From an uncultured Phycisphaerales bacterium (lineage in GTDB: Bacteria; Planctomycetota; Phycisphaerae; Tepidisphaerales; Tepidisphaeraceae), in contig CAVWVQ010000003.1 of NCBI GenBank assembly GCA_963758525.1, positions 4,128,001-4,192,000 on the forward strand: a stretch of DNA of 64,000 nucleotides. The letters run 5' to 3'. The position numbers and the translations under genes are program-made. Positions 1 to 7,205 of the stretch are shown in pieces. The notes under the pieces are model-generated. The model saw nothing but the letters and a program-made list of their open reading frames with translations, was not told where the DNA came from and ran no database searches. Position 1 is the first letter of the stretch. The number at the start of each line of letters is the position of its first letter.

Positions 1-1
1 G

Positions 2-385
2 ATGAGTCGTGGTGCGGCAGGTGCCAACGATTCGGCGGTGATGCAGGATCTCTCGCAGATGCGCAGCGGCATCGACCTGTTCGCCAGTGAACATGGCGGG
101 ACCTATCCCAGCACGACGCCTGCGACCTTCATCAACCAACTGACCACGTATACGGACATCACCGGCGCGGCAGTCGCCACCAAGGACGCAACCCACATTT
201 ACGGTCCCTACATCAAGTCGATCCCGGCATTGCCTGTCGGGACCAACAAGGGTCTGAAGACGATCACAGCCACCGGCCCGGCTGGCACCGGTGCGTTTGG
301 CTGGTTTTACGACGGTCTAACCGTATGGGTGAATGATCCGGCGACGGATGTCGACGCCACGGGAACCGCCTACAACACCTACTAA
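2..385 (+). CDS. Major pseudopilin/pilin-like protein (GspG-like), 5' end outside window
   Basis: DLSQMRSGIDLFASEHGGTYP helix and GPY motif typical of GspG-type pseudopilins; first gene of a pilin-like operon. Confidence 0.7.
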   Translation: MSRGAAGANDSAVMQDLSQMRSGIDLFASEHGGTYPSTTPATFINQLTTYTDITGAAVATKDATHIYGPYIKSIPALPVGTNKGLKTITATGPAGTGAFGWFYDGLTVWVNDPATDVDATGTAYNTY

Positions 386-467
386 ACTCAAATGCGCTGT
401 TCCGATTGCCCGGCCACACGTGAGCCGGGCAATCGCTTTTTAATTGCGGCATTGTCGGGGCAGGACG

Positions 468-2630
468 ATGAGAAAGCGATCGCGACCGGGTAACGCATTC
501 ATCTCTGAAGGGGCTTCTTGTCAACGGCGAGACGGCTTGATTGCTAAGTTCCGTTCATTGCTCTCTCCGATCAGCTTCGCGCACTCCCCCTGCGCCCTTG
601 GCGGGGAGGCTAACGAGGCGGGGGTTTGGGGGCAGAGCCCCCAAGTCTTTGTCGTTCTCGGCGGAACCGTGGCTGCCATCCGGCACCGCGCGGGCGGCGC
701 GATGCGGCGGTTGAATTCATCTCTACGCGGTCATCGGACGGACGGGTCGCAATGCCAGGCCGTGTGTTCCGAGCCGAATAAAACCTTGTTCGCGTCAACC
801 GGGCCGAATTCACACTGTCGCAGTCACCAGCAGAACCCGAATCCGACGCCAGTGGCGTCCGATTCGAACCAATGCCTGCCGGGCCGAATGAAGCCGAGTC
901 GCGGTCTCCAGATTGACGAGACATCGTCTTGCATGGCTGCAAGAACTATTGATGTCATAAGCGTTCCGCCGAACCGCTGGTCATGCCAGGATCATCTCCT
1001 CTTCTTGTTTGACAGGTTGTTGCTTAGCAGATTGTTGCTTGAGCCGGGCCTTGTTGGCCGCCCGCTCGTGTCCGGTGGGCTCCTGGCCCTGGTAGGCCGT
1101 CCCGTCGCGGACCATGGCAAAGAGGACACGCAGCAGGCGTCTTCCCATCGCGACGTTCGCCTTGGGCTTGACCATGTGTCCGATCAGCCGCTGGCGGATC
1201 GCCTCCTGCTTCGCGTCGGAGCGGCAGAGGGTGACCGCGGCCTTGCACAACGCCCAGCGCAGCGTGGCGCTGCCCGCCTTGGTGATGTGACCCGACTGGG
1301 TCCGACCGGCCGACTCCTGGTTGTCGGGAGTCAATCCCGCCCAGAACTCGAGGGTGTCGGCGTTGGGAAAACGGGAGAACTCGCCGATCTCCGCGGCGAT
1401 GATGCACGCCCAGATCTCGTCGATTCCCGGCACGCTCTTGAGAATCGCAATCAGGGAGGCGAATCGCCGGTCGCGGTTGGCAAAAATGATTTTCCTGCGC
1501 AGGCAGTCCCGCTGTCGCTCGATCAGGCAGACCAGGTCCAGGAAGTTGCCGAAGGCTTCGCGCTGCACGTCCTTGAGCAGATCGCCATTGGCCAGCAGCC
1601 ATTTCTGGGCGCCGACGCCGTCCAGCTTGGGACCGCCAATGTTGGCGGCCAGGAGCATCGACCGCATGGCGTGCTTGGCGCGGGTGAGGGTGCGGGACAA
1701 ATGCCGCCAGTGCCGGCCGAGCTTGCGGAGCTGCATCACTGCTTCGGGGGCGATCCATCCCAGCGGGCACTCCCCGCGGGAGAGGCGCTGGGCGATGTCG
1801 GCCGCGTCCTTGCGATCGGTCTTGCGCCGCTTACCCCGGAGGTTGGACAACTGCGTCGCGTCGGCGATCTCGATCTTGTCCACGCAGGAGCGGAAGCGGT
1901 CGATGAACCACTCGACAAAGCCGACGGCTTCCACTGCCAGGCGGCTGGGACGCGGCAACGCCAGCATCCATTTTTCGATGCGGTCAACGCACTTGGTGTC
2001 ACAGGTCAGCGCGGCGATCTGCGTCCCCGAAGCATCGACAGCACACAGCGAGACGGTACACTTATGCAAATCCACGCCGACGAACGCGGCGTACGAAACA
2101 GGCACATCAGACATAACAAACTCCGTGTTAGGGACCAAGGGAACTTAGAACACTCCCGGAAGCGTAACGGCTTCCGCAGGCCCCTTCACGGTTTTACACT
2201 GATCGAACTGGTGTTGATGCTCACCATCATCAGCGTTCTAGCCGCCATCGCCGGACCTCGTTACGCGAACTCGCTTGCACTCTATCGGGCCCAGGCAGGC
2301 GCCCAGCGAATCGCTGTTGATCTGGGCCTGGCGCGCTCACAGGCACGCATATCAAGCGCGGGGCAGAGCGTGGTGTTTAATTTGAACTCGAACAGCTACA
2401 GCCTTCCCGGGATGGCGGGCCTTTCAGGTCAGACGTCTCCTTATAACGTCAAGCTGTCCAGCGCCCCTTATATCGCGACCCTGGTCACGGCGTCTTTTGG
2501 ATCAGGATCGTCCGTCTCCTTCGATCAATACGGGCAGCCATCCGCGGGAGGAACCGTTAAAGTTCAATCCGGGGCCTTCGCGAAAACCGTCATTCTTGAT
2601 CCCAACACCGGTCTGGCAACCGTCCAATGA
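468..2630 (+). CDS. GspH/FimT-like pseudopilin carrying an in-frame IS110 insertion in its prepilin leader (155 aa without the IS)
   Basis: ATG at 468 after AGGA. Removing 502-2196 gives MRKRSRPGNA-FTLIELVLMLTIISVLAAIA, a class III signal peptide. The frame stays open through the IS. Confidence 0.85.
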   Translation: MRKRSRPGNAFISEGASCQRRDGLIAKFRSLLSPISFAHSPCALGGEANEAGVWGQSPQVFVVLGGTVAAIRHRAGGAMRRLNSSLRGHRTDGSQCQAVCSEPNKTLFASTGPNSHCRSHQQNPNPTPVASDSNQCLPGRMKPSRGLQIDETSSCMAARTIDVISVPPNRWSCQDHLLFLFDRLLLSRLLLEPGLVGRPLVSGGLLALVGRPVADHGKEDTQQASSHRDVRLGLDHVSDQPLADRLLLRVGAAEGDRGLAQRPAQRGAARLGDVTRLGPTGRLLVVGSQSRPELEGVGVGKTGELADLRGDDARPDLVDSRHALENRNQGGESPVAVGKNDFPAQAVPLSLDQADQVQEVAEGFALHVLEQIAIGQQPFLGADAVQLGTANVGGQEHRPHGVLGAGEGAGQMPPVPAELAELHHCFGGDPSQRALPAGEALGDVGRVLAIGLAPLTPEVGQLRRVGDLDLVHAGAEAVDEPLDKADGFHCQAAGTRQRQHPFFDAVNALGVTGQRGDLRPRSIDSTQRDGTLMQIHADERGVRNRHIRHNKLRVRDQGNLEHSRKRNGFRRPLHGFTLIELVLMLTIISVLAAIAGPRYANSLALYRAQAGAQRIAVDLGLARSQARISSAGQSVVFNLNSNSYSLPGMAGLSGQTSPYNVKLSSAPYIATLVTASFGSGSSVSFDQYGQPSAGGTVKVQSGAFAKTVILDPNTGLATVQ
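519..524 (-). promoter_or_regulatory. -35 box (TTGACA) of a predicted circle-junction promoter of IS copy 1 (copy 2: 2693-2698)
   Basis: Minus-strand TTGACA plus 17 nt reaches the element end; joining the ends gives TTGACA-N17-TAAAAC facing tnp. Confidence 0.65.
640..860 (-). ncRNA. Putative bridge/seek RNA of IS copy 1 (limits approximate)
   Basis: Segments at 809-817 and 751-755 match the target halves; 716-724 and 665-671 match the donor-junction halves; order is target loop then donor loop. Confidence 0.7.
981..2114 (-). CDS. IS110 family DEDD transposase/recombinase
   Basis: VGVDLHK, AVEA and KTDRKDA (DEDD); SVPGI; AGLTP..QESAG catalytic-Ser region; TKAG..LRWAL; ATG at 2114 with GGAG RBS. 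Confidence 0.95.
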   Translation of the reverse strand: MSDVPVSYAAFVGVDLHKCTVSLCAVDASGTQIAALTCDTKCVDRIEKWMLALPRPSRLAVEAVGFVEWFIDRFRSCVDKIEIADATQLSNLRGKRRKTDRKDAADIAQRLSRGECPLGWIAPEAVMQLRKLGRHWRHLSRTLTRAKHAMRSMLLAANIGGPKLDGVGAQKWLLANGDLLKDVQREAFGNFLDLVCLIERQRDCLRRKIIFANRDRRFASLIAILKSVPGIDEIWACIIAAEIGEFSRFPNADTLEFWAGLTPDNQESAGRTQSGHITKAGSATLRWALCKAAVTLCRSDAKQEAIRQRLIGHMVKPKANVAMGRRLLRVLFAMVRDGTAYQGQEPTGHERAANKARLKQQSAKQQPVKQEEEMILA

Positions 2631-5269
2631 GCCGCAAAAACAGACTGCCAACGAGACTTCGCCGAAGTGCTTTCATCTCTGAAGGGGCTTCTTGTCAACG
2701 GCGAGACGGCTTGATTGCTAAGTTCCGTTCATTGCTCTCTCCGATCAGCTTCGCGCACTCCCCCTGCGCCCTTGGCGGGGAGGCTAACGAGGCGGGGGTT
2801 TGGGGGCAGAGCCCCCAAGTCTTTGTCGTTCTCGGCGGAACCGTGGCTGCCATCCGGCACCGCGCGGGCGGCGCGATGCGGCGGTTGAATTCATCTCTAT
2901 GCGGTCATCGGACGGACGGGTCGCAATGCCAGGCCGTGTGTTCCGAGCCGAATAAAACCTTGTTCGCGTCAACCGGGCCGAATTCACACTGTCGCAGTCA
3001 CCAGCAGAACCCGAATCCGACGCCAGTGGCGTCCGATTCGAACCAATGCCTGCCGGGCCGAATGAAGCCGAGTCGCGGTCTCCAGATTGACGAGACATCG
3101 TCTTGCATGGCTGCAAGAACTATTGATGTCATAAGCGTTCCGCCGAACCGCTGGTCATGCCAGGATCATCTCCTCTTCTTGTTTGACAGGTTGTTGCTTA
3201 GCAGATTGTTGCTTGAGCCGGGCCTTGTTGGCCGCCCGCTCGTGTCCGGTGGGCTCCTGGCCCTGGTAGGCCGTCCCGTCGCGGACCATGGCAAAGAGGA
3301 CACGCAGCAGGCGTCTTCCCATCGCGACGTTCGCCTTGGGCTTGACCATGTGTCCGATCAGCCGCTGGCGGATCGCCTCCTGCTTCGCGTCGGAGCGGCA
3401 GAGGGTGACCGCGGCCTTGCACAACGCCCAGCGCAGCGTGGCGCTGCCCGCCTTGGTGATGTGACCCGACTGGGTCCGGCCGGCCGACTCCTGGTTGTCG
3501 GGAGTCAATCCCGCCCAGAACTCGAGGGTGTCGGCGTTGGGAAAACGGGAGAACTCGCCGATCTCCGCGGCGATGATGCACGCCCAGATCTCGTCGATTC
3601 CCGGCACGCTCTTGAGAATCGCAATCAGGGAGGCGAATCGCCGGTCGCGGTTGGCAAAAATGATTTTCCTGCGCAGGCATTCCCGCTGTCGCTCGATCAG
3701 GCAGACCAGGTCCAGGAAGTTGCCGAAGGCTTCGCGCTGCACGTCCTTGAGCAGATCGCCATTGGCCAGCAGCCATTTCTGGGCGCCGGCGCCGTCCAGC
3801 TTGGGACCGCGAATGTTGGCGGCCAGGAGCATCGACCGCATGGCGTGCTTGGCGCGGGTGAGGGTGCGGGACAAATGCCGCCAGTGCCGGCCGAGCTTGC
3901 GGAGCTGCATCACTGCTTCGGGGGCGATCCATCCCAGCGGGCACTCCCCGCGGGAGAGGCGCTGGGCGATGTCGGCCGCGTCCTTGCGATCGGTCTTGCG
4001 CCGCTTACCCCGGAGGTTGGACAACTGCGTCGCGTCGGCGATCTCGATCTTGTCCACGCAGGAGCGGAAGCGGTCGATGAACCACTCGACAAAGCCGACG
4101 GCTTCCACTGCCAGGCGGCTGGGACGCGGCAACGCCAGCATCCATTTTTCGATGCGGTCAACGCACTTGGTGTCACAGGTCAGCGCGGCGATCTGCGTCC
4201 CCGAAGCATCGACAGCACACAGCGAGACGGTACACTTATGCAAATCCACGCCGACGAACGCGGCGTACGAAACAGGCACATCAGACATAACAAACTCCGT
4301 GTTAGGGACCAAGGGAACTTAGAACACTCCCGGAAGCGTAACGGCTTCCGCAGGCCCCTTCACGGTTTTACACTGATCGAGATGGTCACCAGCATGATCA
4401 TTTTGTCGGTTCTGCTGCTGGCGTGCGGTTCGATTGTCATGATGGCGACGCGGGCCACGACCGATGGGTCGGTTCGTAATGTGGCTCAGCTTCAGGCGGC
4501 GGACGCAGCCAGTCAGATGACCGATGATCTGAATGTCGCGATCAACTTCACGCAACGTACCTCCACCGCAACGACGTTTACCGTCCCCGATCGGTTAAAT
4601 GCAGGAACTCCCCAGATTGTCTCCTATAGCTGGTCGGGCACGTCGGGAACCCCGCTTCTGCGCCAGTTCAACGGTGGACCAGCCACGGCCATCCTTTCGA
4701 CCGTCCAAAGCCTCAACCTCGCATACACACCCAGATTGATGGGACCCGCGCCAGGTCCTGTGGAGCAGGTGCTTTTCTCACATGACGCCGCGGTCGGCGT
4801 ATTCAAAGACTACAAAATGGACGACCAGAACTGGGGATCGCAGTATTTTGTTCCGACATTGCCATTTGGCACCAGTTCGTACACGCTGACACGAGTTCGC
4901 CTGATGCTCAAGGGCGCACCGCAGAACGCCGTCATGAACGTCAGCCTGGTGGCTCCAGACGCTTTTGATCGGCCGACGGGCACCACGATTGCGCAGACTA
5001 CCGTTTACGGGTCGGCTCTCAGCAGCCAATATGAATGGATCGATATTCCGTTCGCCGGATTGACGAACCAGAACCCATTGCAAGCGCTTTGTATTGTTCT
5101 GACTCCCGCCAATGGCGGGAAGGACATTGGCAACATTCAAATTGACCAATCGCTGCTGAACATTCTTTCCAATGCCTATTGGTCGACGACGTCAAATGCA
5201 GGCTCCTCCTGGTCGGCGGGCGTCTCGACCACGGTTGCCCGCTTTTACGTCTTCGGAACGATTCCCTGA
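2627..5269 (+). CDS. PilW/GspJ-like pseudopilin carrying an in-frame IS110 insertion in its prepilin leader (315 aa without the IS)
   Basis: ATGA overlap with upstream gene; removing 2676-4370 gives MSRKNRLPTRLRRSA-FTLIEMVTSMIILSVLLL. Confidence 0.85.
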   Translation: MSRKNRLPTRLRRSAFISEGASCQRRDGLIAKFRSLLSPISFAHSPCALGGEANEAGVWGQSPQVFVVLGGTVAAIRHRAGGAMRRLNSSLCGHRTDGSQCQAVCSEPNKTLFASTGPNSHCRSHQQNPNPTPVASDSNQCLPGRMKPSRGLQIDETSSCMAARTIDVISVPPNRWSCQDHLLFLFDRLLLSRLLLEPGLVGRPLVSGGLLALVGRPVADHGKEDTQQASSHRDVRLGLDHVSDQPLADRLLLRVGAAEGDRGLAQRPAQRGAARLGDVTRLGPAGRLLVVGSQSRPELEGVGVGKTGELADLRGDDARPDLVDSRHALENRNQGGESPVAVGKNDFPAQAFPLSLDQADQVQEVAEGFALHVLEQIAIGQQPFLGAGAVQLGTANVGGQEHRPHGVLGAGEGAGQMPPVPAELAELHHCFGGDPSQRALPAGEALGDVGRVLAIGLAPLTPEVGQLRRVGDLDLVHAGAEAVDEPLDKADGFHCQAAGTRQRQHPFFDAVNALGVTGQRGDLRPRSIDSTQRDGTLMQIHADERGVRNRHIRHNKLRVRDQGNLEHSRKRNGFRRPLHGFTLIEMVTSMIILSVLLLACGSIVMMATRATTDGSVRNVAQLQAADAASQMTDDLNVAINFTQRTSTATTFTVPDRLNAGTPQIVSYSWSGTSGTPLLRQFNGGPATAILSTVQSLNLAYTPRLMGPAPGPVEQVLFSHDAAVGVFKDYKMDDQNWGSQYFVPTLPFGTSSYTLTRVRLMLKGAPQNAVMNVSLVAPDAFDRPTGTTIAQTTVYGSALSSQYEWIDIPFAGLTNQNPLQALCIVLTPANGGKDIGNIQIDQSLLNILSNAYWSTTSNAGSSWSAGVSTTVARFYVFGTIP
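2814..3034 (-). ncRNA. Putative bridge/seek RNA of IS copy 2 (limits approximate)
   Basis: Same four guide-like segments as copy 1, offset +2174. Confidence 0.7.
3155..4288 (-). CDS. IS110 family DEDD transposase/recombinase
   Basis: Same motifs as copy 1; three amino-acid differences (G/R, V/A, D/E). Confidence 0.95.
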   Translation of the reverse strand: MSDVPVSYAAFVGVDLHKCTVSLCAVDASGTQIAALTCDTKCVDRIEKWMLALPRPSRLAVEAVGFVEWFIDRFRSCVDKIEIADATQLSNLRGKRRKTDRKDAADIAQRLSRGECPLGWIAPEAVMQLRKLGRHWRHLSRTLTRAKHAMRSMLLAANIRGPKLDGAGAQKWLLANGDLLKDVQREAFGNFLDLVCLIERQRECLRRKIIFANRDRRFASLIAILKSVPGIDEIWACIIAAEIGEFSRFPNADTLEFWAGLTPDNQESAGRTQSGHITKAGSATLRWALCKAAVTLCRSDAKQEAIRQRLIGHMVKPKANVAMGRRLLRVLFAMVRDGTAYQGQEPTGHERAANKARLKQQSAKQQPVKQEEEMILA

Positions 5270-5277
5270 GTTATGCA

Positions 5278-5892
5278 ATGCAAAAGCCCCCGCGCGAAAA
5301 ACATCGAGGCTTTACGCTTGTTGAGGCAACGCTGTCTGTTGCCATCGTGGGCATCTTGTTAGTCGCTTCCACGGCCACATTCGGATCCATCGCACAAGCC
5401 CGCAAGTCACAAGTGGAGAGTCGAGCGGCATTTTTGCTGGCCCAGCAGTTAATGACCGAAATCATGCAATGCTATTTCCGGCAGCAGGGCACGAACCCTG
5501 TCTTCGGGCCCCAGGCAGGGCAGACCCGGCCAACCTTCAATTACGTCGACGCTTATAACGGCTACACCGCCAGTCCCCCGACGTCGCAGGGGGGCGCGAT
5601 TCTCCCGGATTACACCGGTTGGTCCGAAACCGTAACCGTGGCCTTTGTGGATCCGAACACGTTTTCCATCTCGGCAGGCTCAACGCTTAAACAGATCAAT
5701 GTGGTGGTCACCGCGCCGTCCGGAAAGAGCTACACCCTGGTAGGACTCCGATCTCAATTCGGCGCGTATGAGCTGGTGCCTTCTGCTCAAACCAATTTTA
5801 TTACCGGAGTGTCTGTTTCGTTACAGGGGGGCTTTCCGGCGAAAACGATCTACACGGGCGCTCACCCGCTTAATATCTCCTCATCACAATGA
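5278..5892 (+). CDS. PilV/GspI-like pseudopilin with uninterrupted prepilin motif
   Basis: MQKPPREKHRG-FTLVEATLSVAIVGILL class III signal peptide. Confidence 0.85.
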   Translation: MQKPPREKHRGFTLVEATLSVAIVGILLVASTATFGSIAQARKSQVESRAAFLLAQQLMTEIMQCYFRQQGTNPVFGPQAGQTRPTFNYVDAYNGYTASPPTSQGGAILPDYTGWSETVTVAFVDPNTFSISAGSTLKQINVVVTAPSGKSYTLVGLRSQFGAYELVPSAQTNFITGVSVSLQGGFPAKTIYTGAHPLNISSSQ

Positions 5893-7205
5893 AGAGCAAT
5901 CGCCCAAATACACCCGCTCGCAATAACTTCATCGCGGTACGGCGCAGAGGGTCCGCCTACGTGTTCGTGCTTGGAATCTCACTCATTGTGACCGTGCTGG
6001 GAATGGGCGCATTGACGCTTTCCCGCGTGTTGGCAAAGACGACTGGTGAAGGAAGCGATTGGGAGGCCGCGGGAGTCCTGGCATTCTCCGCTACAGAGCA
6101 CGCGATCTCGTACGTCAACGCTGCCGCCGCCGCTTCTCCTGGAACCTGGAGAAGTGGGTATGTCAGTCGGCAGACCGTGGTCACGCACGCAATGGGCCGT
6201 GGGAGTTTTAGCTGGGCTCTGAAAGATGAGGTGGACGGGAATCTCTCAGCCGACTACCTCCGGCCTTTTCGGGTGTACGGAATTGGGACCGTCGGCAGTG
6301 TGACGCGCGTATATAGCGTCCAGGTGATACCAGCCGGGACTCCGCTGGATGTGCTGCGGACCGCACTGCATTCGAGCGCCGCGATCACGTTGACGGGTAA
6401 TACTCAGGCGGCGAACGGGCCGATTTCGAGCAATTCAAGTGTGAGTCTGTCCGGCAGTGTCTACGCCAGCATCGAGGCGCTTTCCACCACCGGATCCGCG
6501 ACCGGAACGCAAAGCATTACAGCTCCCGCAGCGTCGAAAGCGATGCCTTCTACCAGCATCTTCAACGATCTGCTGCAAAACGCGACTGTCATCAACTACA
6601 GCTCTCTTAGCGGCGGCAATCTGCAGCAATGCCTATTGTCTTCCGCCTCTAACCCGTACGGCACCCCCGACCCCAACGGGGTCTACGCAATCTCGATGGG
6701 AGGTAACCAAACGCTGACCATTACGAATTGCCGCATCGTCGGGACATTGCTTATCCTTGCACCGAACAAAGATAACATCCAGATCAAGGGCCCAGTGGAA
6801 TGGGAGCCTGGAGGCGGAGGCAAACCAATTCTGCTGGTATCCGGCTCAGGTTGCCAGGTGACGTTTTCGGGAAGCCCGACCTGGCTGAGCGAAAGCTCCG
6901 TCGGTGTGAACCTTAATCCGCCTGCCACGCCGTACAAGGGCGCGAGCGACAACGACACGGCGGATGACTACCCGCCGCAGTATCACGGCATCATTCACAT
7001 CATGGGTGGCAGCAGTAACGCGGTGCAGCTCAACGCCAATACTTACATTATTGGAACCCTGATAGCGGACTGCTCCGTAAAGACCACCGCCCAGAGCACG
7101 CTAGTCCAGGATCCGACCATTTACGCTAACCCGCCGTTGGGGTATGCCACAGGCAACGCGATGACAGAAATCCCCGGCAGCTGGAGGTGGGACACTTTGC
7201 CTTAG
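5889..7205 (+). CDS. PilX/GspK-like minor pilin with large Ser/Thr/Gly-rich extracellular domain
   Basis: RRRG-SAYVFVLGISLIVTVLG leader lacking Glu5; last gene of the pilin operon; C-terminal PGSWRW. Confidence 0.75.
   Translation: MKSNRPNTPARNNFIAVRRRGSAYVFVLGISLIVTVLGMGALTLSRVLAKTTGEGSDWEAAGVLAFSATEHAISYVNAAAAASPGTWRSGYVSRQTVVTHAMGRGSFSWALKDEVDGNLSADYLRPFRVYGIGTVGSVTRVYSVQVIPAGTPLDVLRTALHSSAAITLTGNTQAANGPISSNSSVSLSGSVYASIEALSTTGSATGTQSITAPAASKAMPSTSIFNDLLQNATVINYSSLSGGNLQQCLLSSASNPYGTPDPNGVYAISMGGNQTLTITNCRIVGTLLILAPNKDNIQIKGPVEWEPGGGGKPILLVSGSGCQVTFSGSPTWLSESSVGVNLNPPATPYKGASDNDTADDYPPQYHGIIHIMGGSSNAVQLNANTYIIGTLIADCSVKTTAQSTLVQDPTIYANPPLGYATGNAMTEIPGSWRWDTLP

Follow-up and report, generated by a model that had tools for sequence, protein, structure and literature searches.

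The window analyzed here is a stretch of 64,000 nucleotides from the genome of an uncultured Phycisphaerales bacterium (assembly GCA_963758525.1, contig CAVWVQ010000003.1, positions 4,128,001 to 4,192,000 of the forward strand). Near its start lie two consecutive pseudopilin genes, A and B, each of which holds a copy of an insertion sequence (IS) of the IS110 family, in antisense orientation, between the Phe and Thr codons of the motif A-F/T-L-I-E (here and below, a slash within a peptide motif marks the insertion or cleavage point). The corresponding open reading frames (ORFs) on the plus strand, 444/468-2630 and 2627-5269, both stay open across the element, and each harbours an antisense ORF of 385 aa on the minus strand (981-2138 and 3155-4312) that is codon-aligned with the host frame. 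The transposase encoded there matches PF01548 (47.7 bits) and PF02371 (74.4 bits), both above the cut-off.

Aligning the two copies gives a unit that extends from the TTC Phe codon (498-500 and 2672-2674) to GGT TTT (2190-2195 and 4364-4369), with 5 mismatches per 1695 positions and a Phe-to-Phe distance of 1695 bp, or 565 codons. Gene A is split into M-R-K-R-S-R-P-G-N-A-F and T-L-I-E-L-V, and gene B into M-S-R-K-N-R-L-P-T-R-L-R-R-S-A-F and T-L-I-E-M-V. Read in the host sense, the final IS codons give ..EHSRKRNGFRRPLHGF, followed by TLIE, so that the junction is ..RRPLHG/FTLIE; an in-frame ATG at 2064 stands 43 codons ahead of Phe. The features of a prepilin-type substrate (a basic leader, position -1 occupied by Gly or Ala, Phe and Glu at +1 and +5, and a hydrophobic helix) are present in the fused ORFs, with the N_methyl motif (PF07963) at residues 574-595 and 579-599. 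A Pfam scan of the fused ORFs gave no match in the 565 IS-encoded residues, including to intein or splicing domains. The 480-nt non-coding end of the element has no stop in the host frame, versus 4 and 6 in the other plus-strand frames. An earlier note on this DNA had reported two 1695-bp antisense copies at the same site within open ORFs at 468-2630 and 2627-5269, and every descriptive item in it proved correct. The features of the locus are as follows.

468..500, plus strand: pseudopilin gene A, native start codon with its leader M-R-K-R-S-R-P-G-N-A-F, through the Phe codon TTC at 498-500
501..2195, transposase orientation minus: IS copy A, 1695 bp, host (+) frame open throughout; boundaries uncertain by the shared TT[C/T] core
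501..980, minus strand: long non-coding end (RE), 480 nt, downstream of the transposase
506..514: left sub-terminal inverted repeat TGAAGGGGC, read from the sequence
666..960, minus strand: predicted structured RNA block of the bridge/seek type, from covariation in 40 relatives
716..724, minus strand: guide-like segment, plus-strand sense TTCATCTCT, equal to core plus IS left end; RNA AGAGAUGAA invariant in 40/40
778..785, minus strand: guide-like segment, RNA GGUUUUAU, equal to the IS right end joined to the left end (circle junction), in 39/40
809..817, minus strand: guide-like segment, plus-strand sense TTCACACTG, equal to the uninterrupted target Phe-Thr-Leu codons; the 4 bases after TT[CT]AC vary among relatives
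887..895, minus strand: guide-like segment, RNA GGCUUCAUU, resembling the target left flank GGN TT[TC] A; GGUUUUAUU in 5/40 relatives
981..2138, minus strand: IS110-family DEDD transposase, 385 aa, without TTA, CTA or TCA codons
2139..2195, plus strand: short end (LE), 57 nt, upstream of the transposase; the host strand encodes ..NLEHSRKRNGFRRPLHG-F, a basic stretch and a rebuilt Gly-Phe
2180..2188: right sub-terminal inverted repeat GCCCCTTCA, read from the sequence
2196..2630, plus strand: mature pseudopilin A (TLIE.., GspH-like, PF12019)
2627..2674, plus strand: pseudopilin gene B, start codon and leader (M-S-R-K-N-R-L-P-T-R-L-R-R-S-A-F), the ATG overlapping the gene A stop (ATGA, 2627-2630)
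2675..4369, minus strand: IS copy B, 1695 bp, differing from copy A at 5 positions, with its transposase at 3155-4312 (minus)
4370..5269, plus strand: mature pseudopilin B (TLIEMV.., N_methyl motif)

The antisense frame of the transposase gene is open because TTA, CTA and TCA codons are missing from it. Further along the window (5179-7205), the operon goes on with an uninterrupted N_methyl gene (..RGFTLVE) and a 438-aa ORF without Pfam match; two of the three consecutive motif-bearing genes read in this operon hold the element.

The open host frame holds across diverged relatives. A sample of 401 genomes of the phylum contained only distant transposases (28-34% identity). A scan of species-representative genomes gave 27 loci with transposases 55-85% identical to that of the window, mostly in bins of Planctomycetota. 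In 21 of these 27 loci, the peptide ..RPLHGF followed by TL[VI]ELLVV.. is encoded 55-67 nt past the transposase start (136 nt in L032); in 16 of the 21, the open host frame extends 554-701 codons upstream (the exceptions are L014, L024, L032, L033, and L039). The left end is also conserved (ATCTCTGTAGGGGC.., read I-S-V-G-A-x-C-Q-R) and is preceded by a basic leader ending in [G/A]-F; wherever this end could be recognised in genome contigs (19 copies), the element length is divisible by 3. After removal of six additional, duplicate copies of L019 and L028, we analyzed 12 distinct elements. Eleven lack host-frame stops and L014 has one, versus 7-16 and 17-26 in the other frames. The transposase is codon-aligned antisense in every element examined, and the non-coding end (255-687 nt) is free of host-frame stops in 12/12 elements, as compared with 4-7 and 1-8 stops in the other frames. 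Six loci (L016, L017, L018, L020, L027, and L039) come from bins labelled Bryobacteraceae, Terriglobales, Gammaproteobacteria, Gemmatimonadota, Deltaproteobacteria, or Actinomycetota, mostly on short contigs, and four of the six are flanked by pilin-type sequence (TLVE../TMIE.., or, where the contig ends, ..RPLHGF), which suggests mis-binned repeats rather than true hosts.

A scan of metagenomes added 80 loci (62-83% identity). Both ends are recognisable in 47 of them, and the counts of length and frame cover these 47; the other 33 have the right end only (17), the left end only (1), or neither (15), many on truncated contigs and some in two sister clades. Among the two-ended loci (GC 0.54-0.68), the length is a multiple of 3 in 45 and the frame is stop-free in 44. 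L058 has two host-frame stops. L105 and L110 have lengths of 1 mod 3; the transposase of L105 is broken and the transposase match of L110 contains an in-frame stop. The pooled set comprises 59 complete relatives (transposases 62-85% identical, GC 0.54-0.68) in 51 clusters at 90% nucleotide identity. The earlier note had proposed to examine homologues for length in multiples of 3, depletion of antisense stops, and a conserved basic Gly-Phe terminus, and all three are borne out: 50/51 clusters have lengths of 0 mod 3, the host-sense frame is stop-free in 48/51 over 528-633 codons, and the right end of complete relatives is always ..RPLHGF ahead of TL[VI]ELLVV. There are 33 distinct lengths between 1584 and 1899 bp, of which 32 are multiples of 3. 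Over the 29,666 codons of the 51 clusters, the stops in frames 0, 1, and 2 number 39, 569, and 1091, respectively, and 36 of the 39 in frame 0 fall in the frameshifted L110.

Base composition and the transposase gene as such do not account for this pattern. As a proxy, we took 1893 long ORFs of the source genome, whose codon-aligned antisense frame contains, on average, 2.96 stops in 385 codons; only 8.2% of them lack a stop over that length. In the family (108 rows, i.e., the window and 107 loci, with partial matches and near-copies counted), 98 rows have no antisense stop inside the transposase, among them five low-GC members (GC 0.47-0.50, GC at third codon positions 0.47-0.55). The informative comparison is with a nested clade of similar composition (L075, L079, L080, and L081; GC 0.47-0.48), where the transposase is intact and the antisense frame has 6, 6, 7, and 4 stops, respectively. 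Their right end, ..PLHAF (..CCCCTACACGCTTTT), adjoins A[AC]TACAAC.. instead of a pilin motif, in AT-rich, apparently non-coding DNA. A quick IQ-TREE run pairs this non-pilin clade with the low-GC pilin-targeting clade as its sister (SH-aLRT 99), within a family clade of 94 rows, and the pilin-targeting low-GC relatives have no antisense stops. The open frame thus tracks the pilin target. The comparison demonstrates selection for what would be uninterrupted host-sense translation across an autonomous IS.

The low-GC pilin-targeting clade likely reaches the same end by other means. In L064, L065, L066, and L069, the host frame meets a stop after 11 codons of the element, and 2 nt further on lies an ATG that belongs to another frame. 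This second frame, open for 538-540 codons at 47% GC while the two remaining ones contain 16-17 and 42-43 stops, is out of phase with both host junctions. Its stop meets an IS-borne start codon, as ATGA in L064 and L066 and as TAA-A-ATG in L065 and L069. The ATG opens a peptide M-[KRG]-H-R-x-[ND]-Y-T-..-K-P-I-H-G-F that is in frame with T-L-I-E-L-L. L096 forms a long branch of its own, and here the overlap is TTGA and precedes a 26-residue basic leader; the IS-borne leaders of this architecture measure 17-26 aa and end in G/F. This clade is, as read from its codons, a chain of ORFs arranged for translational coupling that ends in a start, a leader, and a putative cleavage site supplied by the IS. 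Hence, what is conserved is the transit of ribosomes up to the junction, and the element end acts as a portable prepilin leader. The earlier note had envisaged either a giant leader or a restart at an in-frame ATG (2064/4238). Both architectures do occur, the first in the clade with a fused frame and the second in the relay clade with its IS-borne start, whereas the relatives do not conserve a restart at 2064/4238: at the position 43 codons upstream, 27/95 genes use CAT for the underlying His, versus 176/616 among other His codons, which is background. Selection against hydrophobic segments in the IS-encoded polypeptide was likewise rejected as a candidate, since none was found relative to the null.

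The source assembly (6 contigs, 6.47 Mb, 60.7% GC) has four near-identical copies of the element, all four in one orientation at [G/A]-F/T-L-[IV]-E of a prepilin-type N-terminus. The target is present in many copies: a six-frame scan found about 56 such N-termini, 82% of which use TTT as the native Phe codon. The genome also has two Peptidase_A24 genes (68.8 and 30.9 bits for a cut-off of 26.5). These comparisons demonstrate, at the level of sequence, that the element is placed exclusively at predicted prepilin cleavage codons and that its end encodes a leader and Gly-Phe. Contigs of four public DNA runs compared with window positions 1-5600 gave element fragments only, none of which bridged an empty site or a circle junction. 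One public contig (run X1) leaves the right end of the element at window position 2197 into another flank (..GATCGTCGAATTGCTGGTCGTGATCGGGAT, read T-I-V-E-L-L-V-V-I-G), and its sequence places a near-identical element at one more site, in a different sample. The source genome also has an unrelated family of short repeats (..attcgtgcagattcgtgttccctcttcatggattc, then GCGCGG in 5/7 copies) at C2:238386(-), C3:1736445(+), C3:2025352(-), C3:2699628(-), C3:3454210(-), C3:3713059(-), and C4:116522(+); the protein-level scan gave several further copies of the attcgtgcagattcgtgttccctcttcatggattc family.

The choice of target may be written in the element itself. On the transposase strand, the long end has a conserved fold across 40 relatives, with 56 consensus pairs, 27 of them with compensatory changes. 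Paired cells reach 95.9%, versus 30-45% in controls with slid partners, and none of 500 shuffles reached the observed values. The helix 257-265 / 345-353 never covaries, and its strands are for this reason more likely guides than a helix. An Rfam scan of window positions 400-2300 at E <= 1 gave no match. Among the unpaired segments, AGAGAUGAA, present in 40/40, is complementary to TTCATCTCT; NNNNGUGAA or NNNNGUAAA is complementary to TT[CT]ACNNNN (Phe-Thr-Leu codons); and G[GC]NUU[UC]AUU resembles the left target flank. The predicted loop segments thus match TT[CT]ACNNNN, TTCATCTCT, and GGTTTTAT, i.e., the target and the element ends, which would explain the fixed site and orientation. We infer from these matches that the RNA guides recombination at prepilin sites. 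The junction bases are TT[C/T] on the left and TTT on the right, and this fits a TT core.

The definition of the IS1111 group in PMC11208160, in the portion that we draw on, puts the recombinase gene between a short upstream end and a long downstream end. We used as further criteria of membership sub-terminal inverted repeats of 7-17 bp and no terminal inverted repeats. In the present element, the recombinase gene is preceded by 57 nt and followed by 480 nt (the downstream end ranges from 255 to 687 nt among 12 elements), and the sub-terminal inverted repeats are 9 bp long (TGAAGGGGC at 506-514 and GCCCCTTCA at 2180-2188). The two ends, the repeats, and the RNA together fit the IS1111 group as that definition gives it. 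Members of this group, whose DEDD recombinases are guided by bridge/seek RNAs (e.g., IS1111-attC elements, IS4321/IS5075, ISPpu9/10), share with it the DEDD_Tnp_IS110 and Transposase_20 domains, the layout of the ends, the sub-terminal repeats, and the RNA, as well as a site- and orientation-specific insertion into a multi-copy conserved sequence; the targets named in the same portion of PMC11208160 are REP elements, attC sites, and transposon ends. In contrast with the group as described there, the present element targets a coding junction between leader and mature protein, is free of in-frame stops over its whole length, and has an end that encodes a Gly-Phe leader.

The interrupted genes themselves appear to be kept. 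The mature ORF is intact (197-368 aa) in 16 of the 17 interrupted genes with enough flanking sequence, and DUF1559 (PF07596) is above the cut-off in 12 of these 16, in most over the full model. Two intact DUF1559-type genes of the source genome, at C3:4773152 and C3:687717 (mature ORFs of 346 and 278 aa), have no element and yet have leaders ending in ..SSRRPLHGF and ..SRSRRPLHGF, respectively. The DNA of these leaders matches the right end of the element at 15/17 nt (C3:4773152) and 31/39 nt (C3:687717). Such ..RRPLHGF leaders are likely to be remnants of solo ends reused as leaders, or else the source of the element end. Tandem or nested copies occur in L091, L095, and L103, with the frame open across them: the right flank of L091 and L095 is the left end of another element (ISVGAV.. 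/ SYVGA..), and the left flank of L103 is the right end of another (..RRPLHGF). This is expected if the rebuilt junction of GGT TTT and ACN is itself a target.

We consider it probable that this IS1111-type element, which inserts antisense between Phe and Thr of prepilin genes, is crossed by read-through or relay translation, and is then removed by the prepilin peptidase, which would keep gene and operon functional. More precisely, the guide RNA and the transposase would place the element in fixed orientation between the two codons. Translation would start at the host start codon and ribosomes would run through the whole element on the host-sense strand, the 565-aa extension staying in the cytoplasm. 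The prepilin peptidase would then cut at the rebuilt Gly-Phe, removing the IS-encoded polypeptide together with the leader, and would release a pilin able to work, while the interrupted gene and those downstream stay expressed. In the relay clade, the host mini-ORF would stop at 11 codons and hand over to the ORF of 538-540 codons, and this one in turn to the IS-borne start, the short basic leader, and G/F. We lean, with slightly less assurance, towards a wider formulation: an RNA-guided IS lineage that is translationally transparent, crossed either as a fused frame or by a relay of stops and starts, that re-supplies leader and Gly-Phe, is excised by the peptidase at the protein level, and whose solo ends may seed DUF1559 leaders. 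The interpretation of the earlier note is thus supported, and from the sequence we infer its last steps, the proteolytic one and the release of functional pilin.

Several observations weigh against this interpretation. The prepilin leaders known to us have about 5-30 residues, and we know of no precedent for the processing of a leader of about 575. The IS-encoded polypeptide shows no depletion of hydrophobic stretches and is, if anything, more hydrophobic than the null: the maximal Kyte-Doolittle value over 19 residues has a median of 1.78, versus 1.48, and exceeds 1.6 in 40/55. Such stretches could disturb membrane topology, so that a well-behaved cytoplasmic giant leader is unsupported at that level. 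At the right junction, the phase depends on one inherited 57-nt end, i.e., on a single ancestral event with a chance of 1 in 3, kept by conservation. Finally, L014, L058, and L062 have 1-2 host-frame stops despite apparently intact transposases, and the data come mostly from metagenome bins and short contigs.

Part of this evidence would suit an explanation by polarity alone, in which the open frame or the relay keeps ribosomes on the transcript and averts Rho-dependent termination and mRNA decay downstream, while the interrupted gene is sacrificed and the fusion degraded. The copies of the window do lie in a pseudopilin operon with overlapping stop and start (ATGA, 2627-2630), the relay clade manages without any fused polypeptide, and the sequence of the IS-encoded polypeptide does not look as if selection had kept it harmless and non-hydrophobic. 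Yet most targets are DUF1559 genes and not pseudopilins inside operons, and relief of polarity has no need of a start codon, a basic leader, and G/F in frame with TLIE, as found in the relay clade, nor of a frame that runs into the mature part, as in the fused clade, nor of mature ORFs that are intact in nearly every interrupted gene (16/17). We regard this explanation as unlikely, although it is the strongest of the alternatives.

Much less probable still is that the long antisense ORF serves the element, as a second IS protein or through an antisense translation that tunes the expression of transposase or guide RNA, with the host phase being secondary. It would account for a long ORF that is strictly open in the relay clade though out of phase with both host junctions. 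Against it, the IS-encoded part matches no Pfam family, the variable part of the non-coding end shifts in sequence and length and nevertheless stays open, the stops of the long ORF abut pilin start codons, and the nested clade that switched target lost the open frame while keeping an intact transposase. Chance, for its part, would require that a GC-rich gene leaves its aligned antisense frame open and that the length in multiples of 3 and the terminal peptide are coincidental. The 8.2% of open frames among long ORFs of the source genome show that this can happen in a single gene, and a distant IS110 (L006, GC 0.68) also lacks antisense stops. The relatives refute it, and we give it next to no weight: 48/51 diverged clusters are stop-free over their whole length, non-coding end included, the frame stays open at GC 0.47-0.54, the other two frames accumulate 569 and 1091 stops, and 32/33 distinct lengths are multiples of 3. 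The earlier note, too, had held that the frequent antisense openness of GC-rich genes does not readily explain the open non-coding end, the length in multiples of 3, or the encoded leader. We retain excision of the translated element by the prepilin peptidase as the preferred interpretation.

Insertion sequences are normally assumed to inactivate genes and to be polar on operons. Mobile elements that live inside genes and are removed after transcription or translation include inteins, group I and II introns, and IStrons (chimeras of IS200/605 and introns). The present element resembles them in principle, but neither a splicing domain nor a ribozyme core was detected in it by Pfam or Rfam, and its removal would depend on read-through and a leader peptidase of the host, so that it is not a member of these classes. 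The palindromic elements of Rickettsia are short, non-autonomous in-frame repeats that are translated within the host protein and kept in its mature form. They are also in-frame selfish DNA, whereas the element studied here is an autonomous IS of 1.6-1.9 kb that sits where the polypeptide can be cut off. Integrases that target tRNA genes, and phage 21 and e14 in icd, bring a replacement 3' end as a duplicate of host sequence at attP. The likeness lies in the re-supply of the displaced gene end (start codon and leader in the relay clade); the difference is that the IS end supplies a 5' leader and that ribosomes must also cross the IS body. The earlier note was not aware of any description of such a strategy, and our literature searches agree: in the full-text literature we found neither an IS described at prepilin leaders nor one crossed by read-through, in a search that did not cover the supplementary tables of IS110 targets of PMC11208160. 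The element belongs to a known group of IS and its strategy appears undescribed.

A practical consequence concerns annotation, as 'pilins' of 700-900 aa in Planctomycetota with an internal N_methyl motif are IS-bearing genes. For the biology of the family, these results reveal an autonomous IS under lineage-wide selection on the strand opposite to its own gene: three sense codons are avoided, the region of the guide RNA is kept readable, and indels come in threes. Constraints on RNA, protein, and antisense frame are thus stacked on the same DNA, and the only evident purpose of the open strand is the expression of the host gene across the element. The putative guide would be a natural bridge/seek RNA aimed at a sequence that encodes a protein motif. 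If the cleavage is true, it would represent a new principle by which selfish DNA offsets its cost with a borrowed leader peptidase of the host, and would explain the persistence of a site-specific IS whose only targets are coding sequences. This would be a third way of living harmlessly inside genes, beside introns and inteins.

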